In this document: in pieces, positions 22,888 to 37,672 of the stretch
Position numbering within the stretch: position 1 is the first letter of the stretch
How the letters are laid out: each line of letters opens with the position of its first letter
Source of the DNA: Spirochaetia bacterium
Lineage (GTDB): Bacteria; Spirochaetota; Spirochaetia; SZUA-6; Bin103
NCBI GenBank assembly: GCA_965203055.1
Contig: OZ241863.1
Location: forward strand, 3,200,001-3,264,000
Length of the DNA stretch: 64,000 nt
Direction: 5' to 3'
Translations under genes and position numbers: made by a program
The notes under the pieces: generated by a model
The model's database searches: none
What the model saw: the letters and a program-made list of their open reading frames with translations, nothing else
What the model was told of the DNA's origin: nothing

Positions 22888-24390
22888 TCAGTTCCCGTCA
22901 AACATATCGTCATCCAGTTCAGGATTCGCCCAGAAGGGGGCGTAACTGCGGTTTCGCGTCCCTACGGCGGGGTCTGCGATCACGATGAGGCCCGCCGTGA
23001 CCGCCTCATTGAGGAACCGTGACGCCATGGACGCATTGTTCCCGGAAATCCCGAATCGTTCGCGTAGCGAGGCGTTGGTCATACGCTGGCGATTCACGTA
23101 TTGCAGGCAGGCGTGCAGATAGCAGGCCCGCACCCGCTCGGCTCTATCCACGTCGGCCATCGGCTTGCGGGCGAAGAGCACGACGCGGGTAAAGTTCGGC
23201 GGCGACTCGAAGAGCGGAGCCGGCAGTTGGTGACGCTCGATCTCGGCCACGACCTTGTCGATTCCGCTGCCCCGTTCCTCGCAGATCCGAAAGCGGCGCA
23301 TAAGCGAAGCGAGCGCTTCGTTGCGGGAATCGGGCGGACTGTCCAGGAAGCGCTGCGTTTCTACCAGCGGCTCGCCGGGATTCGTGATCTCGATGCGCCC
23401 GTCGAAGATTTCGACCATCGGCCCGGCCCCGGCCACGGAGAAGTCCTGATGGATGAGGGCGTTTCCGACCAACTCGCGCACCGCCGGTGCCGGGAACTCC
23501 GGCACCGCCGCGCGCAACGCCTGGCCCAGTTCCTCTTTCGCCGGCAGTCTGGCGTCAATGTAGTCTACCAGCTCCTCGAAACCGGATGCATAGCCCTTGG
23601 TTCCTTCGTGTTCCTTCAACGTCTCGGTGCGGCCTGCGCCGCGGTATTCGATCACACGCAGGCTCTTACGTTTCAATCGGGAGAAGTCGCCGAGATTCCT
23701 GGCGAGCAGGATGGCGCCCAAATTGGTAATGTCGAAGCCGCCTGCCTTACCAGGCGCGATTATCCGGTCCCTCCGCAGCGCGTCGAGGATGGCGGTACGG
23801 CCATCCGGCAGCGGCGCGGCAAGGAGGTCGAAATAGGCCGGATAGTCGAGCCTGAGCAGAACGTCTTCACCACTTACCCGTTCCGCGGCAACGCCGTCCT
23901 CGAAGGGCACACGGTCGAACATTCGCCAGAGTTCCCGTTCTTTCTCGGGAAATTCCTTGAGCTTTCTGGTGGTACCGCCAACTCGAATGAACTCCACGCC
24001 GCTGAACGCGACCGGTTGCCGAGATGCACGGTCGATCTCCAGGAGCACGACGCGTCCTCCATCATCCACGACTTCGTGAAAGCGGAAGTCGATGCGAGGA
24101 CTCAGGAGCCGCAGCAACCACGTCTCCAGCGGCTCGTTGCCCTTCTTCGCAGTGCCCGGCGAGAAGCCCGTACCCGTGACCGTATGCGTATGGTTCTGGA
24201 TCCCCCAGAGCACGTACGCGTTCACCTTGCCGTGGAGCGCCGCCCCGTTGGCCAGCGCGGAGATGTATCGACCGATACGATCCGGCTGGTCCTGATCGAC
24301 CTTGAACTCGACCCATTCGGTCTCGTGCGGCAGCTTGCACAGCTCACGAACGAGACCGAGAAGGTAGCTATTGTCGCGGCTGGTGATCAT
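22888..24390 (-). CDS. Schlafen/AlbA_2 + HATPase_c_4 (RecG-C-like) + winged-HTH protein
   Basis: ETEWVEFK, ISALAN, WGI; REL..NALIHQD, RIEITNPG, RN..LA, CEERGSGI; MTNASLRERFG...Y.PFWA. Confidence 0.88.
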   Translation of the reverse strand: MITSRDNSYLLGLVRELCKLPHETEWVEFKVDQDQPDRIGRYISALANGAALHGKVNAYVLWGIQNHTHTVTGTGFSPGTAKKGNEPLETWLLRLLSPRIDFRFHEVVDDGGRVVLLEIDRASRQPVAFSGVEFIRVGGTTRKLKEFPEKERELWRMFDRVPFEDGVAAERVSGEDVLLRLDYPAYFDLLAAPLPDGRTAILDALRRDRIIAPGKAGGFDITNLGAILLARNLGDFSRLKRKSLRVIEYRGAGRTETLKEHEGTKGYASGFEELVDYIDARLPAKEELGQALRAAVPEFPAPAVRELVGNALIHQDFSVAGAGPMVEIFDGRIEITNPGEPLVETQRFLDSPPDSRNEALASLMRRFRICEERGSGIDKVVAEIERHQLPAPLFESPPNFTRVVLFARKPMADVDRAERVRACYLHACLQYVNRQRMTNASLRERFGISGNNASMASRFLNEAVTAGLIVIADPAVGTRNRSYAPFWANPELDDDMFDGN

Positions 24391-24393
24391 GGC

Positions 24394-24771
24394 TCAGCGT
24401 GGGGGCTGGTGGGCGCCGGCGTCGGTGACGTCGCGTATCCAAGCCAGGGCGGCCATTGCCGCCGACCAGCCGATTGAGGAGATGGCGAGCAACGGCACCT
24501 GCAGCAGCTCCTCTGCCGGGATGCCCTCGCGCAATCCGCGGCGGGCGTGGGAGTGCACCGCGCCCTGGGAGCGGGCGCCGACGGCCAGCGCCAGCTTCAC
24601 CAGGCGCTGAGCGCGCTCGTCCAGCGGCCCGGCTGCCGCGGCCGCCGCCCCGAGCTCCTGGTAGGCGCGCCACACCTCGGGATACTCGGCGATGACGCCG
24701 TCCAGGAATCCCGGCAGCCGCTCCCGGCGCTCCTCTTCGCTGCCGGCCGATTCTGACTTGTCCTGCTTCAC
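24394..24771 (-). CDS. Carboxymuconolactone decarboxylase (AhpD-like) family protein
   Basis: YPEVW.AY, GPLD.R..RLVKLALAVGA..GAVHSH.RR, EEL; no CxxC. Confidence 0.85.
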   Translation of the reverse strand: MKQDKSESAGSEEERRERLPGFLDGVIAEYPEVWRAYQELGAAAAAAGPLDERAQRLVKLALAVGARSQGAVHSHARRGLREGIPAEELLQVPLLAISSIGWSAAMAALAWIRDVTDAGAHQPPR

Positions 24772-24960
24772 CAAGGTCCTGCGACTATGCGGGCGGGCCG
24801 GTCCCCGGTCAAGCAGCGCCGGCGGCGGGCAAGCGGCCCCGGACCACCGTCGGCGCGCGTAACCGCAGCCGCCGGGAGCGGCAGGTGCGGCGAGCCTGCC
24901 CGGCCCGGTCAGCGCCGGCGCGGAGGGTACTCGCCCATGGGTGCGCGCGGCCGGCCGGTC

Positions 24961-24989
24961 TTGACATCCCAATGGCGGCGCTCTAGCTT
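24961..24989 (+). promoter_or_regulatory. Sigma70-type promoter of ku operon
   Basis: TTGACA-17 bp-TAGCTT upstream of ku. Confidence 0.65.
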
Positions 24990-25025
24990 TGTCAGTGCAG
25001 CGCCGCCGGGGCGCGAGGGGGAGTG

Positions 25026-25907
25026 ATGCCGCTACGTACAAGCTGGAAGGGATTCGTCAAGCTCAGTCTGGTTTCGGTCCCGGTAAAGGCCTACACGGCC
25101 AATGACCCCAGCTCCCAGATTCGCCTCAACCAACTCCACTGCGACTGCAACACGCGCATCGCCTACAAGAAGGTGTGTCCGGTGCACGGCGAGGTGGGCA
25201 GCGATCAGATCACCCGCGGCTACGAGCATGCCAAGGGCCAGTACGTGGTGATCGAAGATGAGGAGCTGGAAAAGCTGCGCACCAAGACCGATCACTCCGT
25301 CAACATCGAAGGATTCGTAGCCCCGGACGATCTGGACCCGGTGTACCACGCCGGCCGTACCTATTACCTGTTGCCCGACGGTCCGGTGGGTCAGAAGCCC
25401 TACCGCCTGCTGTTGCGCGGCATGCAGGAGAACCAGGTGCATGCCCTGGCGCAGGTAGTGATCTCGCAGCGCGAGCAGCTCGTGCTGCTGCGTCCGGTGG
25501 ACGGCATCCTGGCCATGTCCGTACTCAGTCACAAGGCAAAGGTGAAGTCGATCGATCTGTTCCGGGACGAGATCGAGGAGGCGGAGTGCAGCCCCGAGGA
25601 GCTGCAGCTCGCCAGCATGCTGATCGACGCCTCGCGGCTGCAGGACTTCGACTTTGGCAGCTATACCGACCGCTACGTCGAGAAGCTTACCGAGCTGATC
25701 CAACTCAAGGTGCAGGGACAGGACGTGGTGCAGGCGGAGGATGTCGAGGAACCCAAGATCATCAACCTCATGGAGGCGTTGAAGCAGAGCGTTGCCGAGG
25801 CGCAGGGCGCCGCCGAGGCGGCGGGCAAGAAGCAGGCGCCGAGCGCCAAGAGCAAGCGCAGCACTGCGCCGCGCGGCAGCCGGGCGCGCAAGCGGCAGGC
25901 CGGCTAG
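25026..25907 (+). CDS. ku: Ku protein (NHEJ)
   Basis: W.G.V.LSLVSVPVK.Y, RI.Y..VC, RGYE, YYL.PD, D.Y, NLMEALK.S, basic C-terminal tail. Confidence 0.96.
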   Translation: MPLRTSWKGFVKLSLVSVPVKAYTANDPSSQIRLNQLHCDCNTRIAYKKVCPVHGEVGSDQITRGYEHAKGQYVVIEDEELEKLRTKTDHSVNIEGFVAPDDLDPVYHAGRTYYLLPDGPVGQKPYRLLLRGMQENQVHALAQVVISQREQLVLLRPVDGILAMSVLSHKAKVKSIDLFRDEIEEAECSPEELQLASMLIDASRLQDFDFGSYTDRYVEKLTELIQLKVQGQDVVQAEDVEEPKIINLMEALKQSVAEAQGAAEAAGKKQAPSAKSKRSTAPRGSRARKRQAG

Positions 25908-25980
25908 CGGCGCGGCGTCGCCGCCCGCAAGACCTGAGGGCGCCGCGCGTTGCGGACCTGTTGGGCGACCGTCCCCCGGC

Positions 25981-26985
25981 ATGCGGACCGTTCCCCTGCC
26001 GGGGCGCGCCGCTGACGCGGCGCAGGGCGAAGTCGTGGCCGTTGCCGGCGCCCGCCTGCCGCGCAGGTTCGCGCCCATGCTCGCCAAGCCGGGTGAGCCG
26101 TTCGACTCCGAGCGCCACCTGTACGAGGTGAAGTGGGACGGCATTCGCGCGGTGACCCTGGTGGAGGGCGGCGGCTACCGCCTGCTGAGCCGGCGCGGCA
26201 CCGACCTTACCGGCAACTACCCGGAGCTGGCTGTCCTGGCGCGGCTGCCCGCCGGCACGGTGGTGGACGGCGAGATCGTGGCGCTCAACGAGGGCCGCCC
26301 CGACTTCGAGTACATCCTGCGCCGCGACCGGCGCGGCCCCCGCGCCCCGGAGACCGGCAGGATGCCGGCGATCTACCTGGTATTCGACCTGATGTACCGT
26401 GACTTCACCTCGGTCATGGAGCTGCCGTTGCTGGACCGGCGGCGCCCGCTGGCCGACCTGGTAAGCGGCTGCGGATCGCCGCACGTCGCCCTCTCCGACG
26501 GCGTGGTCGGCGCCGGCGTGCAGTTCTATCGCGAGGTCTGCCGGCGCGACCTGGAAGGGGTGGTCGCCAAGCGGGTGGACAGCCGCTACCTGGCGGGGCG
26601 GCGCTCGGACGCGTGGCTCAAGATCAAGCGCCGCAGCCGCTACCACTGCGTCGTGCTGGGCTTTCTCGACAAGGAAGGTTCCGACTTTCAGAGTCTGCTG
26701 GTGGCCACCGAGCGGGAGGCGGGGGCGGGGCTGCGCTACGCCGGCCGGGTCGGCACCGGCTTCGACGAGGAGCAGCGGCGGGAGATCAACGCGTTGTTGC
26801 GCCGCCATCCCCGGGCGGCGCCGCTGCTGCCGCGCCCGGCCGAGCTGTCGGCGCGCCATCAGTGGGATCAGGTGCGCTGGGTCGAGCCGGTCCTGTTCTG
26901 CGTCGTCTCCTGTCTGGAGCTGACCAGCGCCGGGATCATGCGGGCGCCGGTGTTCGAGGGGCTGATCGAGGAGTCCGCGCCGTGA
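25981..26985 (+). CDS. ATP-dependent DNA ligase (stand-alone LigD-ligase/LigC-like, NTase + OB domains)
   Basis: PMLA, YEVKWDGIRA (motif I), VDGEIV, VFDLM, LEGVVAKR..S.Y, WLKIK, GRVGTGF, W.EP, MRAPVF. Confidence 0.92.
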   Translation: MRTVPLPGRAADAAQGEVVAVAGARLPRRFAPMLAKPGEPFDSERHLYEVKWDGIRAVTLVEGGGYRLLSRRGTDLTGNYPELAVLARLPAGTVVDGEIVALNEGRPDFEYILRRDRRGPRAPETGRMPAIYLVFDLMYRDFTSVMELPLLDRRRPLADLVSGCGSPHVALSDGVVGAGVQFYREVCRRDLEGVVAKRVDSRYLAGRRSDAWLKIKRRSRYHCVVLGFLDKEGSDFQSLLVATEREAGAGLRYAGRVGTGFDEEQRREINALLRRHPRAAPLLPRPAELSARHQWDQVRWVEPVLFCVVSCLELTSAGIMRAPVFEGLIEESAP

Positions 26986-28376
26986 CCGCGGCGTCCGCCG
27001 GCGGGGACCGGCTGCGCGACCGGGAGGTGGCGTTCGCCGGCCGGCTGGCGTCCATGACCCGGCGCGAGGCCGGCGCGCGGGTAGCCGCGGCCGGAGGCCG
27101 GGTGGTGCGCGAACCAAGCGCCGACACCGCCTACCTGGTGGTAGGGCAGGGCGGCTGGCCGTTGGGCGCGGATGGCCGGCCGGGCAGCGGCATGGCGCGG
27201 GCGCGCCGGCTCAAGGAGCAGCGCGCGCCGTTGAGCATCGTTTCCGAGACTACCTTCCTGCAGATTCTCGGGCTCACGGAGAAGGTGGAAGATCTGCAGC
27301 GCCTGTTTACCACGGCGCAGCTCAGCCGCATCCTCGAGGTGCCGGCGCGGGAGCTGCGCGCCTGGATGCGGCGCAAGCTGATCCGTCCGGTAAAGGTGGC
27401 GCGGCGCCTGGCCTGGTTCGACTTCCGCGAGGTGGCGATGGCGCGGGCGCTGCACGGCCTGATCAGCGCCGGGGTCAGCCCGGCGCGCATCGGGCGCAGC
27501 ATCCGCGAGCTGGCGCAGTGGCTGCCGGAGACCCAGGGCGTCGACACCCAGGCCATGCTCACCCAATTGGAGACTTCCGCCCACGGCCCGGCGCTGAGCA
27601 TCCGGTTGCAGGATGGACGCCTGGCCGACCCGGGCGGCCAGTTGCTGCTCGACTTCCACCGCGGCGCGGCGCCCGGATCGCACCGTGCCGCGATCCGCGC
27701 CTTCACTCCGCCGCACGCGGCGGACCCGCAGCCGGCGCCCGGCGGCCGCCGGCCCGCGGCGCCGGAACTGGTGCGCGACCTGGCCGCGGTGCTGGGCATG
27801 GCGCCTGACGGTATGCCCGCCTCGGAGGAGCCGCCGGGCGTCGCCGAACCGGACACGCCCGGCGGGGTACTCGACTTCGGGACCGCGGCCGGGGCGTGGC
27901 CCGGCGCCGGCCCCGACCAATTGTTCCGGCACGGCGTGCTGGCCGAGGACGCCGGCCAGTGGCACCTCGCCCGCCACCTCTACGAGCGCGCCCTGGCCGC
28001 CGGCGGCGTCGATCCGGAGACCTGCTTCAACCTCGGCAACGTGCTGTACGAGTTGGATCGCAAGCATGCCGCGGCGCGCCGTTACCTGCAGGCGGTGGCG
28101 CTGGACGCCGAGTACGTGGAGTCGCTCAACAACCTGGGCAACGCCCTGGCCGAGAGCGGCTGGCTGAACGAAGCGGTGCGCGCCTACCGCCGCGCGCTAC
28201 TCCTGGAGCCCGCCTACGCCGATGCCCACAGCAACCTGGCGGAGGCCCTGGTGTACCTCGGCCGCTATGGGGAGGCGCGCTTCCACTGGACCGCCTATCT
28301 CGCCATCGACCCGCGCAGTTCCTGGGCCAACGCCATCCGCGAATTGCTGCGCAATCTCCCCGCCGACCGTAACTGA
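26982..28376 (+). CDS. BRCT - MerR-type HTH - TPR protein
   Basis: LigA-like BRCT (V.FAGRL.SMTR.EA...V...GG...T.YLVVG...IVSE..F); HTH (QLSRILEV....LRAW.R..LI.P...FDF.EV); TPRs (FNLGNVLY, NNLGNALA, HSNLAEAL); GTG overlaps ligase stop. Confidence 0.82.
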   Translation: MTAASAGGDRLRDREVAFAGRLASMTRREAGARVAAAGGRVVREPSADTAYLVVGQGGWPLGADGRPGSGMARARRLKEQRAPLSIVSETTFLQILGLTEKVEDLQRLFTTAQLSRILEVPARELRAWMRRKLIRPVKVARRLAWFDFREVAMARALHGLISAGVSPARIGRSIRELAQWLPETQGVDTQAMLTQLETSAHGPALSIRLQDGRLADPGGQLLLDFHRGAAPGSHRAAIRAFTPPHAADPQPAPGGRRPAAPELVRDLAAVLGMAPDGMPASEEPPGVAEPDTPGGVLDFGTAAGAWPGAGPDQLFRHGVLAEDAGQWHLARHLYERALAAGGVDPETCFNLGNVLYELDRKHAAARRYLQAVALDAEYVESLNNLGNALAESGWLNEAVRAYRRALLLEPAYADAHSNLAEALVYLGRYGEARFHWTAYLAIDPRSSWANAIRELLRNLPADRN

Positions 28377-28390
28377 AGGCGCGCGGCGGT

Positions 28391-29167
28391 TCACACCCGC
28401 ATCCGCAGCAGCGGGCGCGCGAACGAGATTGGCAGGCAGCCGTCGCCGACGCGGGACCTGGTGCCGGGAGTCATGAAGTGAATGGCGAAGGCGCGCCGCT
28501 CATGCGCGGTCTGGTTGGGGCCGGTGTAGTGGAAGGTCTGGCAATGGTGCAGCATGGCGCCGCCCGCCGGCAGTTCGATTGCCACCGCCTGCGCGCTGTC
28601 CACGCGCCCGGCGTTGTCGAGCAGCGCGTCGGTAGAGGCCGCGCGGTCATGTTCCAGCGCCCGCAGGTGGGAGCCGGGAAGCACCTGCATCGCCCCGTTG
28701 GCAACGGTGACGGCGTCCAGCGTCAGCCAGCAGCTCACCAGGTTGGCCGGCACGCATTGCCAGTAGGCGTTGTCCTGATGCCAGAACACCGGGCCGCCGT
28801 GGTGCGCCGGCTTGTACAGCGCCTGATCGTGGAACAACTGGATGTTGGGACCGATCAGATCCTCGATGCAGTCCAGGATCGGCTCGTGGTACAGCAACCG
28901 GCGGAAGCGCAGGTTGCGCTCGCACATCTGCATGATCTGCAGCATCTGCTCGCCGGCCTCGTTCTTGGCCGCCAGGTCGTCGGTGTCGTCGATGGCGAGG
29001 TTGCGGAATGAGCTGCCACCGGCGCGGGCGCGCGCGAACTCGCGGTCGTACTCGCGGCGCAACTGCTCGACCTCGGCGCCGTCGAGCAGCGCGCCCAACT
29101 TCAGGTAGCCGTGGGTGTGGAATGCGTCCACCTGCGCGGCGGTGAGTCTGCGGTAGCCGTCGGTCAT
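28391..29167 (-). CDS. Phytanoyl-CoA dioxygenase (PhyH) family Fe(II)/2OG oxygenase
   Basis: F...GY, KP...GG..WHQD, W..LD....NG.M..LPGSH, H.T..N....RRA. Confidence 0.92.
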   Translation of the reverse strand: MTDGYRRLTAAQVDAFHTHGYLKLGALLDGAEVEQLRREYDREFARARAGGSSFRNLAIDDTDDLAAKNEAGEQMLQIMQMCERNLRFRRLLYHEPILDCIEDLIGPNIQLFHDQALYKPAHHGGPVFWHQDNAYWQCVPANLVSCWLTLDAVTVANGAMQVLPGSHLRALEHDRAASTDALLDNAGRVDSAQAVAIELPAGGAMLHHCQTFHYTGPNQTAHERRAFAIHFMTPGTRSRVGDGCLPISFARPLLRMRV

Positions 29168-29210
29168 CCTCTGAGAACCCTATACCGAGATGCGCGGCAG
29201 TGTCAGCCGG

Positions 29211-29236
29211 GCGTTACCGCGGCGCCGCGGTAACGC
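29211..29236. terminator. Perfect 26-bp palindrome just 3' of ligD (possible terminator hairpin)
   Basis: GCGTTACCGCGGCGCCGCGGTAACGC is its own reverse complement; no U-tract. Confidence 0.5.
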
Positions 29237-29240
29237 GCCG

Positions 29241-31337
29241 TCAGGAGGCTGCAAGATACTCCTGCAGGCGCTCGATTGCGGGGGCGAAGTCCTGGGGATC
29301 GGTCAGCGTGGAGCGAAACCGATCGCCGCGCCGCGCCAGGAGCGCCGGGGTGTTCGCAATGGTGAACATGCCGGGGTGCAGGTCGCCGTCCAGCTCGTCC
29401 CACTCCAGCGGCATCGACACGCGCGCGCCCGGGACCGGGCGCGCCACGTAGGGTGGCACCATGGTGGCGCTCTTGCGATTTTGCAGGAAGTCCACGTACA
29501 CCTTGCCGCCGCGCCCGCGCGGGTGCCGTTCCACGCTGGCGATGTCGGGATGCTCGCGCGCCACCATGCGCCCGACCGCCTCCATGAACAGGCGTACCTG
29601 GTGGTAGCCGTAACCGGGCACCAGCGGCAGATAGACGTGCAGCCCGGAGGCGCCGGAGGTCTTGACGGAGGGGTGCAGGCCGATGCCGCGCAACACCTTG
29701 CCGGCGGTGCGCGCCACCCGCTTGGCGTTGGCGAAGGAAGATTCCTTGGCGTCCAGGTCCAGTACCGCGAAGTCGGGGTGCTCCAGGCTGGCGCGGCGCG
29801 ACAGCCAGGGGTGCAGCTCGATGCTGCCCAGATTGATCAGGTAGAGCAGGGTCCGCACGTCGTTGCAGACGAGTTGGCGGTCGTGCCGCGCGTCGACCTC
29901 CACCAGTTCCACCCAGTCCGGCACCCCGGCCGGAGCCTGGCGCTGGAAGAACGACTTGCCCTCGATGCCGTTGGGGTAGCGGTGCAGGTGCACCGGCCGT
30001 TCGCGCAGGTAGGGGAGGAGAAACTCGGCCACCTGCTCGTAGAACTGCAGCAGGTCGCCCTTGGTGTAACCCTCGCGCGGCCAGAACACCTTGTCCAGGT
30101 TGCTGAACGCGACCGCGGCGTCGCGCGGCCGGCGCTGCCGGGCCTGCGCCAGGGCGGTGCTGACGTCGACCCGGCGCGCCGCCGCGGCCGCCTGCAGCGC
30201 CACCCTGCGCCACGCCGGCCGGGCGCCCGACCGATAGCGGCTGTCGGCCCGCTTGGCGACCAGCGCGTGGAAGCCGGCGGCCTCGGCGACCGCGGCCAGA
30301 CGCTCGCCGCTCGCCGCGACGTGATCGGCGTACAGCAGGCCGGGCGACGGCGGCAGCAGCGAGCGCAGCAGGTGCTTGCGTTCCAGCAGCGGCAGGCCGC
30401 GCAGGTCCCATTCATCGTAGTGCAGCAGGTCGAATGCGTAGTAGACGACGGCTCCCTGGGTCTCCCCGCTGCCGGCCCAGGCGTCGATGGCGCCCCGCGC
30501 AGGGCGGCCGCTCCGGTCCAGCGCCACCCACACCCCGTCCAGCAGCGCCTGTTCGGCGCGGACGCCGGCGAAGCGCGCCTGCGCCGCCGCCGCGGCGCGC
30601 GGATGCAGGGGCAGCCGCCCCCCGCCCGGCGCCGCGAACGCCGCCGCGCCGCCGTTGATCATGGCCAGGGCGCGGAGCCCCTCGAACTCCAGCTCGAAGA
30701 TCCAGTCGGCGCCGGAGAACTGCTCATGGTCGGCGCCCGCGGCCATGGCTCGCGGGCGCTTGGGAAGGGGCGCCGTGCGTACCCGCGCCGGGTCCACCGC
30801 CGGTACCGGGTCGCCGGCGCCGCGGGCGTAGCGGTCGCGCGCCTTGAACAGCAGCCAATCATCCTTGTCGGGGTTGGTCCGCACCAGGTGCCACTCGCCG
30901 CGCAGCCGGCGGCCGCGCAGCATCACCTTCACTTCGCCGGCGGCGAGCGCCTCCGCCAGGCCGGCGGCCTTCACGATCTCGTAGGAACCGGAGTCCCAGA
31001 TCAGCATGGTGCCGGCGCCGTATTCACCCTTCGGAATCACGCCTTCGAAGGTGCGGTAGCGCAGCGGATGATCCTCGGTGCGCACCGCCAGATGCTTCTC
31101 CGCCGGGTCATAGGAGAAACCGCGCGGGACGGCCCAGGATACCAGTACCCCGCCGGCCGCGAGGCGCAGATCGTAGTGCACGCGGCGCGCCTCGTGGCGA
31201 TGGATCACGAAGCTGCCCTCAGCGGCCGGCGGAGCTTCCCCGGATGCCCCCGCCGGGTCGTCGAACGCGGGTTCCGGAGTGCGGTGAAAGTTGCGCTTGG
31301 CCTGATATTCCGCGGCGGACTTCGAGCTGCGCGCCAT
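29241..31337 (-). CDS. ligD: LigD-type protein: 3'-phosphoesterase - degenerate ligase - primase/polymerase
   Basis: PE: Y..KR.F..TPEP, H.ARR.HYDLRL, TEDHP; POL: YTK.DL..Y, RYPNG, DLD, KTSG..GLH, VDFLQN; ligase motif I reads ELEFEG. Confidence 0.9.
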   Translation of the reverse strand: MARSSKSAAEYQAKRNFHRTPEPAFDDPAGASGEAPPAAEGSFVIHRHEARRVHYDLRLAAGGVLVSWAVPRGFSYDPAEKHLAVRTEDHPLRYRTFEGVIPKGEYGAGTMLIWDSGSYEIVKAAGLAEALAAGEVKVMLRGRRLRGEWHLVRTNPDKDDWLLFKARDRYARGAGDPVPAVDPARVRTAPLPKRPRAMAAGADHEQFSGADWIFELEFEGLRALAMINGGAAAFAAPGGGRLPLHPRAAAAAQARFAGVRAEQALLDGVWVALDRSGRPARGAIDAWAGSGETQGAVVYYAFDLLHYDEWDLRGLPLLERKHLLRSLLPPSPGLLYADHVAASGERLAAVAEAAGFHALVAKRADSRYRSGARPAWRRVALQAAAAARRVDVSTALAQARQRRPRDAAVAFSNLDKVFWPREGYTKGDLLQFYEQVAEFLLPYLRERPVHLHRYPNGIEGKSFFQRQAPAGVPDWVELVEVDARHDRQLVCNDVRTLLYLINLGSIELHPWLSRRASLEHPDFAVLDLDAKESSFANAKRVARTAGKVLRGIGLHPSVKTSGASGLHVYLPLVPGYGYHQVRLFMEAVGRMVAREHPDIASVERHPRGRGGKVYVDFLQNRKSATMVPPYVARPVPGARVSMPLEWDELDGDLHPGMFTIANTPALLARRGDRFRSTLTDPQDFAPAIERLQEYLAAS

Positions 31338-31374: not shown

Positions 31375-32661
31375 TCAGGAGGGCAGCGCTCCAGGCGGCC
31401 GGCGCGCCGGCTGACCGGCCGCGCCCAGCGCCGCTCCGGCGCCCGCGGCAGCGAGGCCGAGCCGGTTGCTGATGAATGCCAGCAGCATCCGGTAGTACTG
31501 CAGCATGGAGGCGATGTCGATCCACTCGTCCGGGCGGTGGACGTTGCCCACCAGCGGCCGGCTGATGATGACCGGGATGCCGCGTTGCGACAGGAACCGC
31601 GCGTCGCTGGTGCCGGCGGTGCGCACTACCCACATGGGCCGTCCCAGCACCCGTTCGCCGATCGCCATGAACTCCGGGTTGGGAGTCATCTCGGTAGGTT
31701 CGTCGCCGACGCGCGGGGTGACCCGGGTACTCCCGCTCAGGCAGGCGCGTACTTCCGCCAGCATGCCGGCCACCGTCCAGGGGGGAGTGAAGCGCACGTC
31801 AATGCCGGCGCGCGCATAGGCGGGAATGCGGTTCAGGGTGTGGCTCTCCGACTCCAGAGTGGTGACGGTGGCGGTAGGATGCCAGTGTTCGCCGGCCGCC
31901 GCCGCGGCCGGCGCCTCGGAATCGCCGCCGGCACGGCCGCTCCCGGCCTGCGCCTCTGCGGCCAGCGCTGCGAACCGCTCCTGCAGGCGCGTCAGATCGC
32001 CGAGCATCGCGGTCACCGGGTTGCGCCCCTCCCAGGGATAGGCGGCGTGGGTGGAGACGCCGCGCCATTCCGCGTCGAGATGCAGGATGCCCTTCTCCGC
32101 CACCACTACCGCGTCGATCGAGCCCCCGTCCGGCAGCAGCGCCACCCCGCACGTCAAGCCCTGCTCGGCGAGATGGCCGGCGCCGTTGCGCCCGCCGTGC
32201 TCTTCGTCGCCGGTGACCGCCAAGCCGAGCGAAATGCCGGGGTGGCGGTGATGCAGCTCGGTGAACAGGGTCACGAGAACGGCCAGCGCGCCCTTCATGT
32301 CGCCGGCGCCCGGCCCGTAGATGCGGCCGTCGCGCACCTGCGAGCGATAGAGCCCGGAGGGACCGTGGTCGACCACGTCGACGTGCGCCAGCAGCAGCAC
32401 CTCCGGCCGCACTACCGCGGCGGGCCGCACCACCAGGGAGGGGACGCCGGCGCAGCGGTGCTCCTCCAGGCGCAGGCCGGCGACGGTGTCGAGCTGGATG
32501 CGCAGCAGGTCGAGGCCGCGTTCGATCTCGGCGGGATGGGCCGCTGCGCTGGGGATCAGGATCAGGTCGCGGGTGAGCGATACCAGGCGGTCGCGCAGCG
32601 CGGCGTCAGCGTACCCGGCGCCCGTATACCCGGCGTCCGGGTACTCCTCAGTCCCGGTCAT
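31375..32661 (-). CDS. M20 family metallopeptidase/amidohydrolase (ArgE/DapE-like)
   Basis: AHVDVV, GPGAGDMKG, DEEHGG, EKG, H.AYPW.G.N, GTSDARF, H..DEWI. Confidence 0.9.
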   Translation of the reverse strand: MTGTEEYPDAGYTGAGYADAALRDRLVSLTRDLILIPSAAAHPAEIERGLDLLRIQLDTVAGLRLEEHRCAGVPSLVVRPAAVVRPEVLLLAHVDVVDHGPSGLYRSQVRDGRIYGPGAGDMKGALAVLVTLFTELHHRHPGISLGLAVTGDEEHGGRNGAGHLAEQGLTCGVALLPDGGSIDAVVVAEKGILHLDAEWRGVSTHAAYPWEGRNPVTAMLGDLTRLQERFAALAAEAQAGSGRAGGDSEAPAAAAAGEHWHPTATVTTLESESHTLNRIPAYARAGIDVRFTPPWTVAGMLAEVRACLSGSTRVTPRVGDEPTEMTPNPEFMAIGERVLGRPMWVVRTAGTSDARFLSQRGIPVIISRPLVGNVHRPDEWIDIASMLQYYRMLLAFISNRLGLAAAGAGAALGAAGQPARRPPGALPS

Positions 32662-34009
32662 AGCGCCACTTCAGGTGAAAGGCCCGCTCCACCAGAGCGC
32701 ACGTGCGCTGCACGGCGGCGGCGTCCCGAGCCAGACACAGCAACTGACTCTTGGCGACCTGGCGGTTGCCGTCGAGGTTGAAGTTGATCGGCAACACCCC
32801 GGCGTCGGCGCCGGGGTGGAACAGACACCGCTCCCGTTCCAGGGCGGCGAGCACCGCCGGCGCCGGCAGCGGCGGATGGAAGCGCAGATTGCGCATCAGC
32901 CACGCCCCGCCGGGAATGAAGTGGCGCGCCAGAATCGAGGGGTAGGAAGCGCCGGTCACGCGCGCGTTGATCTCGGCGGCGATGGCCTGCAGTTGGCCGT
33001 CGCGGCGCGCCAGCACGAAGTCTACCGACGCGGTGCCGCGGTAGCCTTGGGAATGCAGCCAGAGCGCGGCCCGGGAGGCCACGGCCAGAAGCTGGTCGAC
33101 GGCGCCCGGTTGCGCGGCGGCGTACGGGGGCGGCGCGACGTTGCCTTCGTGCACGCTGTGAGCGCCGAGGATCTGTTCGGTCACGTCATACAGGCTCACC
33201 TCGTGATCGGCCAGGAAGAGCTGCACGCTCGGCGACCCGATCAGCTCGACGCCGCCGGCGCCGTCTTCGAGCCAGCCCTGCACCAGGCAGGGGCCTTCGT
33301 GAAACAGGTATGTCGGGATGCGCGCGGCATCGATGCCGGCTGCCGGCAGACACAGCATGCCGATCCCGGAGCCTCCGATCTGCGCCTTGAGGGCGACCTT
33401 GGCGTAGCCCATCGCCTGCAGTTGCCGGCAGCAGGCCGCGGCATGCCGGGCCGACTCGGCGGTCACGGTATCGAAGGTGGGCAGACCTTCCTGGGCCAGG
33501 AACTGGTGCAGCAGCAGCTTGTTGTTGCCGTTGTGGCTGCCGGCGTGGCTGCTCAGGGTCCGCTTGCCGGCGCGCTGCGCCAGCTCCGCGAGCGGATGAT
33601 CGGTCACGAAGCCGTCGATCCACGGCGCCGGATGGGCGCGCAGCCGCTCGACCAGGGCGGCGCGGCCGCCGGCGGGGGCGCGCCCCTGGTAGGTGGCCGG
33701 CGTGGTCAGGAGCACCTCCGGCAGACTGAGGCCGAGCCCCTCATGGTAGCCGCGCAGCTCGCCGGCCGGCTCCGATTCCAGTACCAGCAGGTTCCCGCCG
33801 CCGGTGAACAGCAGGTCGATCAACGGCAGCAGCCGCCCGCCGTAGGAGTCGATCCCCTTGATCTGCTCGGTGAGAATCTCGGTCTGCCGCCGGTTGCCGT
33901 AGAACAGCGACAGCACGTTGGCCACGAAGACCGCGCTGCGGTCCCAGAAGCGCGGCAGATGAGCAGGGCGCGCCCGCACCGCCGGCGGGCGCTCGGTGAC
34001 GTTCGTCAT
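32648..34009 (-). CDS. ATP-grasp-like (pre-ATP-grasp) putative peptide ligase
   Basis: NNKL.LH, K...GGSG.G, LVQ.W, SPSVQ, H.GN, GY.G..SVDF, EINARVTG; overlaps M20 gene. Confidence 0.7.
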   Translation of the reverse strand: MTNVTERPPAVRARPAHLPRFWDRSAVFVANVLSLFYGNRRQTEILTEQIKGIDSYGGRLLPLIDLLFTGGGNLLVLESEPAGELRGYHEGLGLSLPEVLLTTPATYQGRAPAGGRAALVERLRAHPAPWIDGFVTDHPLAELAQRAGKRTLSSHAGSHNGNNKLLLHQFLAQEGLPTFDTVTAESARHAAACCRQLQAMGYAKVALKAQIGGSGIGMLCLPAAGIDAARIPTYLFHEGPCLVQGWLEDGAGGVELIGSPSVQLFLADHEVSLYDVTEQILGAHSVHEGNVAPPPYAAAQPGAVDQLLAVASRAALWLHSQGYRGTASVDFVLARRDGQLQAIAAEINARVTGASYPSILARHFIPGGAWLMRNLRFHPPLPAPAVLAALERERCLFHPGADAGVLPINFNLDGNRQVAKSQLLCLARDAAAVQRTCALVERAFHLKWRYDRD

Positions 34010-34026: not shown

Positions 34027-34055
34027 ATGGTAGATGGCGCGCCGCCGGTTGGCAA
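34027..34055 (-). promoter_or_regulatory. Sigma70-type promoter of ATP-grasp/M20 operon
   Basis: Minus strand TTGCCA-17 bp-TACCAT, 17 nt before ATG. Confidence 0.55.
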
Positions 34056-34073: not shown

Positions 34074-36203
34074 CAGGAAAATCCCATGCTACAGAGGCTG
34101 GTGGGAGCCGCGCCGACGCGGAGGCCGGAGTGGCCAGCGACAATCAAGATGAGAACCGAGCGGCTGCCTCCGGCGGAGGGGAATGGGACAGCGGGTGGCG
34201 CACCTGAGGGCTTGGTCCCGACCGTAGTCGCGCAGTTGGCCCCGGACGGCGACCGGATGGGAGCGCGGGGCGGGCCGGGAGTGGTTCGAGGAGTGGGGGC
34301 GGAGCGCTTGAAGCGGGGCTGCGCCAGCCTCAGCCGGGCGCCATGAGGGCCTTGATGGCTACCTTCGGGCGCCCGGTAAAGTAGCGTAGTGCCGACGCCA
34401 CGTTGGTCCACCGGCGGTAGCGCAGGATCAGTGCCAGCACCAGGTTGTTGCACACCGCGCGGTTGGCAGGCGCCGCGTGGCGCCGCGCCAGGCAGGCGTC
34501 CTCAGCCAAGGTGCGGTCGCGGCGATGGTGGTTCTTCGACTCGATCGCCCAGTGGCCGCGGTTCCAGGCCAGCAGTTGCTCCGCAGAGGCTTCGGAGGCC
34601 GGCACCGAAGTGATGCCGTAGGCGTAGGTAACGGTCTTCTCGCCGCTCTTGAGCACGTGGCGGTCGCGGCGCACCCGGAACACCTGCGCGACGTGCGGGT
34701 AGTTGAGGGTGTTGGGCGGCAAGGTCATAACTTCGATGTGGCGCCGTTCGATGCGGCCATGGGCCTTCTCGGACGCTGTGGAGAAGCGCGCGGTAGCGTG
34801 TTCCCAGGGGATGCTGACGAGTGCCTCGTAGGTCTCGGAGGAGTTCTGCTTGACGGTCATCTGATAGTGGGCCTGGTGCTGTTCGACGATCTTGGTGGCG
34901 GTGTCGCGGGTGGTGTGGAGGGCATCGAGGGTGATCACCGCGCCGCCGATCGAGACGGTCTCCAGCAGGGCGCCGACGGCGGCCAACTCGCCATTCTCGT
35001 CGTGGAAGTTGAGACTGGCGAGCGGCACGCCGGTGCCGTGCTCGACCAGGGTGGCGGTCTCGTAGCGTAGCGAGCCGTGGCGATTGGCGCCGCGAATGCG
35101 CTTGCCGTCGGCCGCGATGGCGCGGCGTTGGCGCGGAGCTGGCGGTGGCAGGCGGGACTCGGAATAGCGCTGCAGGATGGCTTCGAGGTGCTCGGTATCG
35201 GCGTGCATGAGCACCCGGTGGATGGTGGACTTGGGGGGCGGATGGTAGCGCCCGGTGCGCCGATTGCGCCACGCGCCAATATCTTTGAGGTCCTTCTGCG
35301 TGAGCCTCTGAGCATACTCCGCCGCCGCGACCGGGCCGCGAAAGTTGCCCAGCGCAGCCAGCAGGTAGACTGTCAGCACGGTCGCAATGGAGTGCTTGCG
35401 CCCCTGGCCGCGGCGGTAGTCGGGGAGGTCTTCGAGTTCGGCGTACAGACTGCGCTTATCGACTGCGGCGTTATCGTCTGGGTGTTCGGGCCGTGCCCGC
35501 CAGCAGTCTGGCAGCTTGCCGGGCTGGCTGAGGATACGCCGGGCATCGCGCCGCAAGGGGCGCACGAAGAGACGCTTCGGGTGGCCGTGAGGGTCGGTGT
35601 AGTGGCCGTTGCTGCGCGCGTAGCCCTTGCTGTCGCCGACGTAGGTCCAGTTGCCGGCCTGATACAGGGTGCCGGAGAAGCGCTGCGGATCGACGAAGCT
35701 CTCCGCAACCAGCAGCGGATGGCCGTAGTGGTGCTGCCAATCGGAACTGAGTTGGCGCAGCATCGCGGCCATCATCCTGGAGGCGAGATTGGGAAACACG
35801 CCGCGCTGGCCCAGGACGACGAAGCGGGTGTTGTTGGCCACCAGATGGAGGCGGCGGAACATTTCGGGGCGGCGCCAGCCGATCCAGCGATCGCGGGGTG
35901 CGCACTTGAGGGCGGCGCCCTGCCAGCCGGCGAGCGCGAGCCAGCGACCGCGCCAGACGGCGAGATAGCGCAGGCCGCGGCCGGCGAAGCGGGTGAAGCC
36001 GAGATAGTGATGGTGGTTCATCAGCGCGTCCCACTGGACGCGTTCGTGGGGGTGTGCGAGGCGCACCTCCACTTCGTCGAGCGCAAACCCTGGGGGCGTG
36101 GCCTGGGGCAGGGGTTCGTCGAGCACCTTCCGAGAGTCCATGGCCTAAGCCTATCAACTCAGTTCTCGGCAGTCCAGTCCCTCCTTAGCATGGGATCGCC
36201 TTG
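34074..36203 (-). mobile_element. ISAs1-family insertion sequence, about 2130 bp, with imperfect terminal IRs and target duplication
   Basis: IRs CAGGAAAATCCCATGCTACAGAGG / CAAGGCGATCCCATGCTAAGGAGG (18/24); GCGTGCCAT duplicated at 34065-34073 and 36204-36212. Confidence 0.88.
34330..36141 (-). CDS. ISAs1 transposase with N-terminal DUF4338 domain
   Basis: N: HHYLG, RD.WIGW, NNTRF, NLAS, ESFVD, GT.Y.A.NW; C: D.R...G..H, IA.DGK, ITLDALH, VK.N, HGRIE.R, R.HW.IE..H..RD..L.ED. Confidence 0.92.
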   Translation of the reverse strand: MDSRKVLDEPLPQATPPGFALDEVEVRLAHPHERVQWDALMNHHHYLGFTRFAGRGLRYLAVWRGRWLALAGWQGAALKCAPRDRWIGWRRPEMFRRLHLVANNTRFVVLGQRGVFPNLASRMMAAMLRQLSSDWQHHYGHPLLVAESFVDPQRFSGTLYQAGNWTYVGDSKGYARSNGHYTDPHGHPKRLFVRPLRRDARRILSQPGKLPDCWRARPEHPDDNAAVDKRSLYAELEDLPDYRRGQGRKHSIATVLTVYLLAALGNFRGPVAAAEYAQRLTQKDLKDIGAWRNRRTGRYHPPPKSTIHRVLMHADTEHLEAILQRYSESRLPPPAPRQRRAIAADGKRIRGANRHGSLRYETATLVEHGTGVPLASLNFHDENGELAAVGALLETVSIGGAVITLDALHTTRDTATKIVEQHQAHYQMTVKQNSSETYEALVSIPWEHATARFSTASEKAHGRIERRHIEVMTLPPNTLNYPHVAQVFRVRRDRHVLKSGEKTVTYAYGITSVPASEASAEQLLAWNRGHWAIESKNHHRRDRTLAEDACLARRHAAPANRAVCNNLVLALILRYRRWTNVASALRYFTGRPKVAIKALMAPG

Positions 36204-36288: not shown

Positions 36289-36585
36289 GTGGAAGTCTTC
36301 TTCCAGTCGAACAGGCTCTTAGGATGCTACCAGGACTCGTCGAGAGCGTATCGTGAGTGGGGCGCCATCGTTGGTCGGCGGTACATTCGCATGGTGAATG
36401 AATTGATTGCTCTGCCTGCGTTTCACGACCTGTTCGCAGTCGTGCGGATACGTGCGCACCAGTACAAGAGTCGTCCCGGCTCGTACGCGTTGAACATGAC
36501 AGGACGTTGGCGAATGATAGTTCGGCAAGGGGTTAGCCCTGACGAGGTGCTCGTGGAGGAGGTGAGCAACCACTATGATGACTAA
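36289..36585 (+). CDS. higB: HigB-like (RelE/ParE superfamily) toxin
   Basis: MEV.F...L, H......G.YA..M.G.WR.I, VEEV..YDD; upstream of HTH antitoxin. Confidence 0.75.
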   Translation: MEVFFQSNRLLGCYQDSSRAYREWGAIVGRRYIRMVNELIALPAFHDLFAVVRIRAHQYKSRPGSYALNMTGRWRMIVRQGVSPDEVLVEEVSNHYDD

Positions 36586-37672
36586 GGGCAAGGCCCGCGG
36601 CGACGTGTATTCGGACTTGGCCATCCCCCCAGGTGAGACGCTGTCCGACGAGATCGCCTCGCGCGGCATGAGCCAGACGGAGCTGGCGGCGCGTCTGGGA
36701 CGCCCGGTTCAGGTGGTAAACGAGATCGTGCATGGGAAGAAGGCGATCACCGACCACACTGCGATCGGCCTGGAGAAGGTTCTCGGCATACCGGCGGCGT
36801 TCTGGGTGAACTTGGAGCAGAACTACCGGATGACCAAAGCCAGGCTTCGCGAACGAGCCCACCTGCAGGCCGAGGAGGAGTGGCTCCAGGAACTGCCCGT
36901 CGGCGAAATGCAGAAGCGCGGCTGGATAGCCGTCCGACGGGATGTGCAGGGTAAGGTACGTGAATTGCTTCAGTTCTTCGGAGTGGCGAATGTCTCTGCC
37001 TATCGAAAGACGACCGAGGTGCTCGGGTTTCGTATCTCCGACAAGGCCAGGGTCTCGCCCGGCGCCTTGGCTGCTTGGCTGCGCAAGGGAGAGCTGGAGG
37101 CACAGACGATAGAGACCCGTGCATTCGACCAGAACCTGCTACTGGCAGCGGCTCGTCAGGCGCGCACGATGACCGAATGTCAGCCACAGGAGTTCGCCCC
37201 GCAGTTGAAACAACTATTTGCCAACGCCGGGGTCGCGTTTGTCGTGATTCCTGAACTGCCCAAAACCGGCGCTAACGGTGTTGCTCGTTGGCTCACGGAT
37301 CGAAAGGCGCTGATACAGTTGAATCTACGCTACAAATGGCAGGATATTTTTTGGTTCACGTTGTTCCATGAAATCTGCCATGTCCTCAAACACCGCGATC
37401 AGAAGATCATCATTGATGAGACCAATGAGAACGATAAGAATGGGCCGCTTGAAGACGAGGCGAATCAATGGGCCGCCGACTTCCTGGTACCGCCAAGTGA
37501 TTGGTTGGAGTTTCGAAGTGGGCGTCGGTTCGAGAAAAGTGGTATTATTGCATTTGCTCAGCGGATGGGAATATCGCCCGGCATCGTCGTGGGACGTATG
37601 CAGCGCGAGCATCTCTTGAAGTATTCTGAAATGACAGAACTAAAAGGCCGCTTTGGATGGACAAATGACTAG
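36575..37672 (+). CDS. higA: HigA antitoxin (XRE HTH) fused to ImmA/IrrE metallopeptidase
   Basis: PPGE.L, MSQ.ELA.RLG, I..GK..IT, FW.NL..NY; FWFTLFHEICH (HExxH), E.EAN..A..L. Confidence 0.88.
   Translation: MMTKGKARGDVYSDLAIPPGETLSDEIASRGMSQTELAARLGRPVQVVNEIVHGKKAITDHTAIGLEKVLGIPAAFWVNLEQNYRMTKARLRERAHLQAEEEWLQELPVGEMQKRGWIAVRRDVQGKVRELLQFFGVANVSAYRKTTEVLGFRISDKARVSPGALAAWLRKGELEAQTIETRAFDQNLLLAAARQARTMTECQPQEFAPQLKQLFANAGVAFVVIPELPKTGANGVARWLTDRKALIQLNLRYKWQDIFWFTLFHEICHVLKHRDQKIIIDETNENDKNGPLEDEANQWAADFLVPPSDWLEFRSGRRFEKSGIIAFAQRMGISPGIVVGRMQREHLLKYSEMTELKGRFGWTND

Follow-up and report, generated by a model that had tools for sequence, protein, structure and literature searches.

A ku-linked stand-alone ligase, a ligase-dead LigD and a BRCT-HTH-TPR protein in a spirochaete end-joining gene cluster

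The window analysed here is a stretch of 64,000 nucleotides from the genome of a Spirochaetia bacterium (contig OZ241863.1), which contains a gene cluster for bacterial NHEJ (non-homologous end joining). Its members are ku, a stand-alone ATP-dependent DNA ligase gene, a gene encoding a protein with BRCT, MerR-like helix-turn-helix (HTH) and tetratricopeptide repeat (TPR) domains (hereafter BHT), and a convergent ligD whose ligase domain has lost its catalytic residues (Table 1). A preliminary description of this DNA had recognized all four genes, the intact motifs of the compact ligase, the overlap of BHT with the ligase gene and the dead ligase domain of LigD, and the profile scores and motif residues given below agree with it on each point. 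The start of BHT overlaps the ligase stop by 4 nt. The distance of about 0.9 kb reported between the operon and ligD is confirmed as a gap of 864 bp, but this gap is filled by a phyH-family gene, which stands outside the conserved cluster, as no such gene lies between BHT and ligD in four related genomes (G029, G022, G026 and G019). The four cluster proteins are small and soluble-looking. The genome of the window (G000) is one 4.56-Mb contig with 68.8% GC, harboring one ku and one BHT gene. Its closest named relatives are two Spirochaetota records (L001 and L002), and the protein P0301 from a Spirochaetaceae bacterium is 73% identical. A single public contig, possibly the source of this DNA, matches the stretch over its whole length without a difference, and a second study also covered it, in near-identical pieces.

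Table 1 Features of the end-joining cluster and related genes elsewhere in the genome (window positions unless a genome contig is named)
Feature	Position	Strand	Remarks
Sigma-70-type promoter candidate, TTGACA-17 bp-TAGCTT	24961-24989	+	seen in sequence
ku	25026-25907	+	293 aa; alternative GTG start 25023
Stand-alone ATP-dependent ligase (NTase + OB)	~26035-26985	+	~316 aa; start uncertain: 25981, 26035 or 26077
BHT (BRCT/MerR-like HTH/TPR gene)	26982-28376	+	464 aa
phyH-family 2-oxoglutarate dioxygenase gene	28391-29167	-	PF05721 122.5 bits
ligD (PE, pseudo-ligase NTase, POL)	29241-31337	-	698-aa open reading frame; convergent to ku operon
LigC-like ligase	G000:C1:2141200-2142400
Prim-PolC-like gene	G000:C1:2146900-2147950
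LigB-like ligase	G000:C1:3941900-3943400

LigD contains a PE domain (amino acids ~10-168), a pseudo-ligase NTase domain (amino acids 196-381, window 30195-30752) and a POL domain (amino acids ~409-690). The PE and POL domains score above their cut-offs (TIGR02777 and TIGR02778, among the cluster models passed within 6.3 kb) and possess their catalytic motifs, as do the other proteins with a dead ligase domain, with some pattern misses for two of the five motifs. The ligase part reaches 89 bits against a cut-off of 227.75. Within it, E217 replaces the Lys and E219 the Asp of motif I, V269 and H357 replace the Glu of motifs III and IV, and no PF04679 match is found, so that the OB domain, with its motif VI, is missing. 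PE and POL are spaced by 246 amino acids, compared with 382-408 in three intact LigDs; the spacing is 228-252 in 16 of the 18 dead LigDs measured. According to the excerpted part of PMC8656161, adenylylation of a ligase needs both the catalytic Lys and the OB domain. A LigD without motif-I Lys and OB thus cannot form the ligase-AMP, and the sealing must come from another enzyme.

The stand-alone ligase passes TIGR02779 (234.2 bits, cut-off 227.75) and matches both Pfam ligase_A_M and ligase_A_C. Its motifs I, III, IIIa, IV, V and VI are intact, with the motif-I Lys codon at 26131, and the motifs are likewise intact in all 26 stand-alone ligases aligned. The states of the two proteins are strictly paired in the loci examined: a dead LigD lacking both the motif-I Lys and the OB domain is present in 23 of 23 cases with a stand-alone ligase after ku (22 loci and the window), and LigD is intact in six of six loci without one, two frameshifted LigDs (L161 and L162) being left out of this count. 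This pairing is in line with the earlier proposal that ligation and end-processing reside on separate polypeptides. It is very probably the ku-linked stand-alone ligase that does the sealing, in a division of labour with LigD.

The dead domain itself is well conserved. Among 111 database homologues of this region, 48 lack the Lys and the OB motif, 56 have both and seven are mixed; the latter are truncations, pattern misses and P0310, which retains the Lys, lacks the OB and is placed in the dead clade. The 74 Lys-less rows keep the Asp-Gly of motif III (73 rows), the Phe-Asp of motif IIIa (73), the Lys of motif IV (72) and the Trp of motif V (72), and their catalytic residues are replaced, with Val in place of the motif III Glu in 67. 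In addition, 17 columns are invariant in an alignment of 19 dead domains spanning two phyla. When 101 ligase domains were placed in a quick maximum-likelihood tree, a branch with a Shimodaira-Hasegawa-like approximate likelihood ratio test (SH-aLRT) support of 99 set the 37 dead domains apart from the rest, another with a support of 94 did so for the 26 stand-alone ligases, and the same subgroups recur in both. The split appears to have arisen once, with the genes for dead LigD and stand-alone ligase inherited together; in this tree, the deep branches of which are not resolved, nothing clearly marks the stand-alone ligase as a copy of the dead LigD domain.

The genome samples used for comparison are rich in metagenome-assembled genomes, contain kin that are not independent and are assigned to phyla by the named locus on which each sample was centred (L005, L013 and L063); 'not found' in them does not equal absence. 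Across the sample of 251 Planctomycetota genomes, high scores for the dead-type domain and for the stand-alone clade fall on the same 11 genomes, a circular result since these 11 were in the profiles; in each of them the ligase of the stand-alone clade is encoded behind ku. No further dead-type domain was found in this sample beyond the 11 genomes, and motif I is intact in the 19 other Planctomycetota ligase domains checked (G229 lay outside the check, and few candidates were scored per genome). A metagenome scan with the ligase alignment returned, among the matches listed, mostly other LigD-type ligases on short contigs; among these matches an HTH gene lies behind the ligase only in L222 and L223, and there is no dead LigD. 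An apparent ligase-HTH fusion of 620 amino acids (P0063) was read as a frameshift artefact. On a Paraburkholderia plasmid (L180:3288-5131), a ligase-like sequence next to a ku-TPR pair is split over two frames and is followed by a SOS-response-associated peptidase gene.

Ku scores 247.6 bits with TIGR02772 (cut-off 150) and, with a single tblastn match in G000, is the sole Ku of the genome. Its tail is basic and of low complexity and carries a short K-x-A-P-S-like motif (window 25826-25847). This motif is present in 28 of 38 aligned Ku proteins linked to an HTH-TPR gene, is missing in Acidobacteriota-type Ku, and is a candidate docking peptide. The TTGACA/TAGCTT promoter previously noted ahead of ku is present, and it is supported as a candidate because both hexamers are kept, at 17-18 bp spacing, in six of the seven same-genus loci examined and in L163 from another family. 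Its -35 hexamer is perfect, but the -10 hexamer matches the consensus at only three of six positions and the site falls below the promoter-scan threshold. In the two named Spirochaetota records, a gene for an extracytoplasmic function (ECF) sigma factor is located between ku and the ligase gene (L001:7499-8671 and L002:1331-2143).

BHT is composed of a BRCT domain (amino acids ~10-99), a MerR-like HTH domain with an Rv2018-like beta extension (amino acids 105-228) and approximately four TPRs (amino acids ~311-458). The AlphaFold2 model built from a 68-row alignment has a mean predicted local distance difference test (pLDDT) of 82.6 and a predicted template modelling score (pTM) of 0.68, and displays an alpha/beta N-terminal domain, the HTH and the TPR helices, joined by a low-confidence linker between HTH domain and TPRs. 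MerR_1 (PF13411, 37.7 bits) and TPR families pass the Pfam cut-offs; PF13411 is found in 31 of 31 BHT-family rows at E <= 0.1, and the TPRs match generic peptide-binding TPR domains. Pfam does not find the BRCT domain in the window BHT itself. The N-terminus weakly matches the NCBIfam models for LigA and PRK06195 at their BRCT ends, BLAST aligns it with a LigA BRCT (28% over 74 amino acids, E 1e-4), and it is also backed by the secondary structure of the model, by PF00533 on homologues and by Atlas clusters. These matches, weak but concordant, suggest a BRCT domain of LigA type, into which a family-specific insertion (P60-G65) is built. At the positions that we take to form the phosphate-binding pocket of the LigA BRCT, compared with LigA from L122, the 68 BHT rows have Thr in 54, Gly in 66, Arg in 51 and the Lys of the second LigA helix in 11. 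Against the anti-phage defence profiles of PADLOC 2.0, the four cluster proteins gave only a weak HTH match (mad1, E 2.7e-4) and no passing stretch.

The HTH domain raises the question whether BHT, with the same split catalysis around it, is a transcription regulator whose BRCT or TPR domains sense damage and whose MerR-like HTH controls repair genes. Among solved structures, it is closest in sequence to the DNA-binding domains of GlnR, Alr3614/CvkR and TnrA (E 2e-7 to 2e-5), the residues R116, R126, W128 and R130 are kept in 65-68 of the 68 rows, and the family persists in genomes without detectable Ku, all of which would suit a regulator. The top fold match of the whole HTH domain is Rv2018 (PDB 5AF3), itself a weak match (E 4.5e-3, TMq 0.50; sequence-profile E 0.0028). 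However, the model has no long MerR dimerization helix, showing helices of 14 and 7 residues followed by beta strands, 16-19 of 31 diverse rows have lost the wing, and BHT is the last gene of the operon, tight behind ku or the ligase gene. MerR-activated promoters possess a dyad operator within a spacer of 19-20 bp, and the spacer of the ku promoter candidate is shorter than that. Moreover, no palindrome or direct repeat is shared above shuffles by 44 ku upstream regions (best 6 of 44, shuffled maxima 4-7), and a housekeeping-type extended -10 occurs in 17 of these regions, compared with 1.6 in shuffles. The lack of an operator-like repeat upstream of ku together with the common extended -10 makes a structural partner that is co-expressed with ku a better fit than a regulator acting locally, without proving it, and we regard the regulatory role as unlikely.

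The family to which BHT belongs extends well beyond the window. We call the two genes linked if they share a strand and ku lies upstream, at most 4 kb from the HTH-TPR gene. Among 61 genomes of the own order, the HTH-TPR gene is present in 25, Ku in 25 (one weak) and both in 23; the pair is linked in 21 of these 23, separated by 5.7 kb in one and on different contigs in one. The complete convergent arrangement without phyH is found in five genomes (G029, G022, G026, G019 and G873), and no HTH-TPR gene was found in 150 other genomes of the phylum. In the 251 Planctomycetota genomes, the HTH domain is matched in 40, Ku in 36 and both in 22, of which 20 have the genes adjacent. Eleven of these 20 loci show ku, ligase and (B)HT together with a dead LigD, six show ku and (B)HT together with an intact LigD, and three have no LigD in the fetched DNA. 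The Acidobacteriota sample (150 genomes, 50-bit cut, one unpublished genome left out) contains the HTH-TPR family in 52 genomes, Ku in 56 and both in 40; the genes are adjacent in 27, with 88-294 bp between the profile matches. All 20 of these 27 loci that were fetched encode an HTH-TPR protein without BRCT and none has a stand-alone ligase, and motif I is intact in 13 of 13 LigDs seen near ku. A plasmid search with amino acids 1-228 of BHT returned five matches, all from Burkholderiales, and in both of the two plasmids opened Ku directly precedes the TPR protein. Homologues of the four genes thus do co-occur; a lack of such co-occurrence was what the preliminary description had named as grounds for refuting it. 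Fisher tests of the co-occurrence of the family with Ku give p of about 1e-11 to 1e-13, values overstated by the kinship within the samples.

Other searches delimit the family. A GTDB pattern scan that also used TPR motifs returned 80 loci, 72 with the HTH domain and eight with unrelated TPR proteins, and a profile search with the full-length BHT alignment against 1.84 billion representatives was swamped by long TPR proteins. Viral contigs contained no BHT relative. In 251 random Pseudomonadota genomes there were seven weak matches, whose 3 kb loci contained neither a TPR nor Ku, and these were read as generic MerR proteins. The correlation between pairwise identities of Ku and of HTH-TPR proteins (rho 0.76) is explained by shared ancestry and was not used as evidence. 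Two tandem BRCT-HTH-TPR paralogues are encoded in L125:4176-6929 (G106), a genome without detectable Ku.

Several of our observations weigh against a tight and obligatory association of these components. Because the dead domains form one clade, the pairing of dead LigD with stand-alone ligase has the statistical weight of one event, not of independent events. Stand-alone ligases also adjoin ku in further lineages in which both BHT and a dead LigD are missing (for example L225, L229, L244, L263 and L278), and ligD of the sister genus is located elsewhere on the chromosome, far away from ku. G000 further encodes LigA, a LigB-like ligase and, 4.5 kb from a Prim-PolC-like gene, a LigC-like ligase, and the latter two ATP ligases could seal ends too. 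Regarding BHT, 18 of the 40 Planctomycetota and 12 of the 52 Acidobacteriota genomes that carry the HTH-TPR family have no detectable Ku; in several of these carriers a full BHT is encoded on a multi-megabase contig, next to unrelated genes such as glyA (seven loci) and sulfatase genes. A few of the Ku-less Planctomycetota matches may be other proteins than BHT, as in three of the 18 genomes the HTH comes with a weak (L123 and L126) or no (L132 and L137) TPR match. Conversely, the HTH-TPR gene was not found in 14 of 36 Planctomycetota and 16 of 56 Acidobacteriota genomes with Ku. G014, which is 95% complete, keeps ku, ligase and a dead-type LigD without BHT, and the metagenome contig L224 has ku and ligase without BHT. 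The BRCT domain is optional, being absent from all 20 Acidobacteriota loci fetched and from the sister genus, and in the window BHT the Thr and Lys positions of the pocket are occupied by Ala (A19) and Gly (G70).

These distributions do not fit the fixed four-component machine that had been envisaged for this locus. The BHT family is also encoded behind ku at loci that combine an intact LigD with the lack of a stand-alone ligase (the 13 Acidobacteriota LigDs and the six Planctomycetota loci), it occurs without detectable Ku, and BHT can be missing where the other three genes are kept. The description of the machine as more eukaryote-like is not supported either: the BRCT domain is single and of LigA type, and no match to XRCC4, XLF or LigIV is among the BHT fold hits listed, the whole-model lists being filled by TPR proteins. 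The likeness to eukaryotic classical NHEJ (Ku70/80, LigIV-BRCT, XRCC4, XLF) is one of analogy, comprising a ligase apart from the polymerase, a BRCT domain, which in BHT is not on the ligase, and a possible scaffold.

The Ku-less genomes also bear on the idea that BHT serves Ku-independent DNA maintenance, alongside LigA, base-excision repair or the sliding clamp, its tie to ku being no more than co-expression. In one such genome the BHT-family gene lies 3.4 kb from ligA (L122). Furthermore, a G-Q-x-x-x-D-F stretch at the end of the HTH domain (amino acids 219-225, window 27636-27656), in which Gly-Gln is invariant and Phe near-invariant, may resemble a sliding-clamp-binding peptide. This stretch is, however, modelled as a beta strand of the HTH domain, and the whole-domain fold match to Rv2018 suggests a structural motif. 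Linkage to ku, across short gaps, is found repeatedly in four phyla, no repair gene recurs among the neighbours of Ku-less BHT genes, and a Ku-independent role thus appears improbable. Least probable is that the dead domain is a decaying relic, the stand-alone ligase a LigC-like excision-repair enzyme near ku by chance and any back-up ligase the sealing enzyme: LigC is considered an NHEJ back-up in mycobacteria in the excerpt of PMC8068969, the LigD K484A mutant retains repair efficiency in that of PMC12848934, and ku-adjoining ligases occur in other lineages as listed above, but the dead domain keeps its length and its invariant columns, G000 has a separate LigC-like/Prim-PolC-like pair elsewhere, and the stand-alone clade follows ku in every Planctomycetota genome that holds it.

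We therefore favour, on balance, a conserved variant of NHEJ in which ligation is outsourced to the stand-alone ligase and an older accessory protein is linked to Ku. Following established NHEJ chemistry, Ku would bind and bridge the DNA ends, the PE and POL domains of LigD would heal and fill them, and the stand-alone ligase would seal them in trans. The conservation of the dead NTase domain suggests that it is kept as a structural module, such as a spacer or a surface for binding DNA or a partner, and a structural job is somewhat more likely than not for a domain that would otherwise be debris. The role of BHT is the least certain step. It may be a non-catalytic DNA-binding adaptor of the Ku pathway, for which we see about even chances; its HTH, and the BRCT where present, would hold DNA and its TPRs would bind a partner, so that BHT would improve or direct end joining and not be strictly required. 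A complex prediction for the Ku dimer (amino acids 1-275) with BHT (amino acids 10-457) gave a score of 0.01 with controls that were not folded, and provides no evidence either way. A more elaborate form of this variant is tentative and falls short of an even chance: the (BRCT)-HTH-TPR protein would be a Ku-bound third NHEJ component or scaffold in Planctomycetota, Acidobacteriota, one order of the own phylum and some Burkholderiales, and at the same time the dead NTase domain of LigD would sense the nick or dock the ligase, so that the ends would be passed on from the polypeptide that processes them to the one that seals them.

The excerpts of PMC6379672 and PMC7969030 portray NHEJ in bacteria as a pathway of two proteins, and end joining here probably uses more than these textbook two proteins. 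The system shares with the canonical pair of Ku and PE-LIG-POL LigD (Agrobacterium LigD1/2, Pseudomonas LigD) the Ku core, the PE-LIG-POL order, intact PE/POL motifs and the clustering of ku with ligD, whereas its LigD lacks the catalytic Lys and the OB fold, and ku is accompanied by genes for a separate ligase and for BHT. The departure from the canonical scheme noted in the preliminary description is thus a real variant, but not without precedent, since the excerpts of PMC4797286 and PMC7719229 already present separate components. The former describes operons that encode Lig, Pol and PE as distinct proteins, as in Methanocella paludicola (Ku, Pol, PE, Lig), and the latter, by Sharda et al., has 'nonconventional NHEJ' as a class in a survey of 5,973 genomes, with a neighbourhood analysis covering ku-ligD proximity only. 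A separate ligase co-encoded with Ku is common to these systems and to ours, and from its gene content the cluster is predicted to work like split NHEJ and not like a canonical LigD system. Unlike in Methanocella, PE and POL are in one open reading frame of 698 amino acids, joined through the retained pseudo-ligase, and there is an extra non-enzymatic gene. In mycobacteria, a ligase-dead LigD mutant with LigC as back-up indicates that end joining can proceed without the ligase of LigD itself (excerpts of PMC12848934 and PMC8068969); in contrast to this engineered point mutant, the loss here is natural and includes the OB domain, the dedicated ligase is ku-linked, and the LigC-like gene lies elsewhere. 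For BHT, likeness to known proteins is confined to single domains. The family consensus of the BRCT keeps the Thr-Gly and the Arg of the N-terminal loop of the LigA C-terminal BRCT, which it matches weakly in sequence, whereas it is N-terminal, fused to HTH and TPRs and carries its own insertion. The HTH fold is shared, with weak matches, by Rv2018 and MerR-type domains (GlnR, TnrA and RacA), and BHT has TPRs instead of the coiled coil or effector domain of MerR activators.

No description of a ku-linked BRCT/HTH/TPR gene or of a naturally ligase-dead LigD was found in the full-text literature searched, with supplements and subscription papers outside the scope of the search, and TPR or MerR are not mentioned in PMC11936186, PMC4889933, PMC7719229 and bioRxiv 2023.09.30.560322. 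Within the literature searched, both the pseudo-ligase LigD with its dedicated ligase and the Ku-linked accessory family across four phyla are undescribed. A survey by domain presence would probably score the LigD of the window as conventional, and domain counting would misfile such LigDs as complete. Placed immediately after ku in four phyla, the conserved non-enzymatic gene offers a concrete candidate for an NHEJ accessory factor that has been missing so far. A natural ligase-dead LigD that comes with a dedicated ligase sets the structural role of the LIG domain apart from its catalytic one, a domain that has so far been probed by point mutants. The variant may also matter for heterologous NHEJ-based genome editing.

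The surroundings of the cluster vary among relatives. An M20 peptidase gene and an ATP-grasp-like gene (31375-34009, minus strand) run head to tail into ligD with a 37-nt gap, followed by phyH, and a promoter-like site (34027-34055) lies ahead of this run; ligD may be co-transcribed here with the two genes, which sit elsewhere in most relatives. On the other side, a CMD/AhpD-like gene (24394-24810, minus strand) is divergent from ku and adjoins it only in G000, G003 and G010 among the relatives, and a Schlafen/AlbA_2 and HATPase_c_4 gene (22888-24390, minus strand) occupies a lower-GC stretch directly upstream of the cluster. Further downstream, a transposase gene (34330-36141, minus strand) encodes a DruA-like domain fused to DDE_Tnp_1_assoc and DDE domains. 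It is followed at 36289-37672 (plus strand) by an open reading frame of 98 amino acids without a Pfam match and an HTH_3 and IrrE/M78 peptidase gene, a pair that looks like a HigBA-type toxin-antitoxin system.

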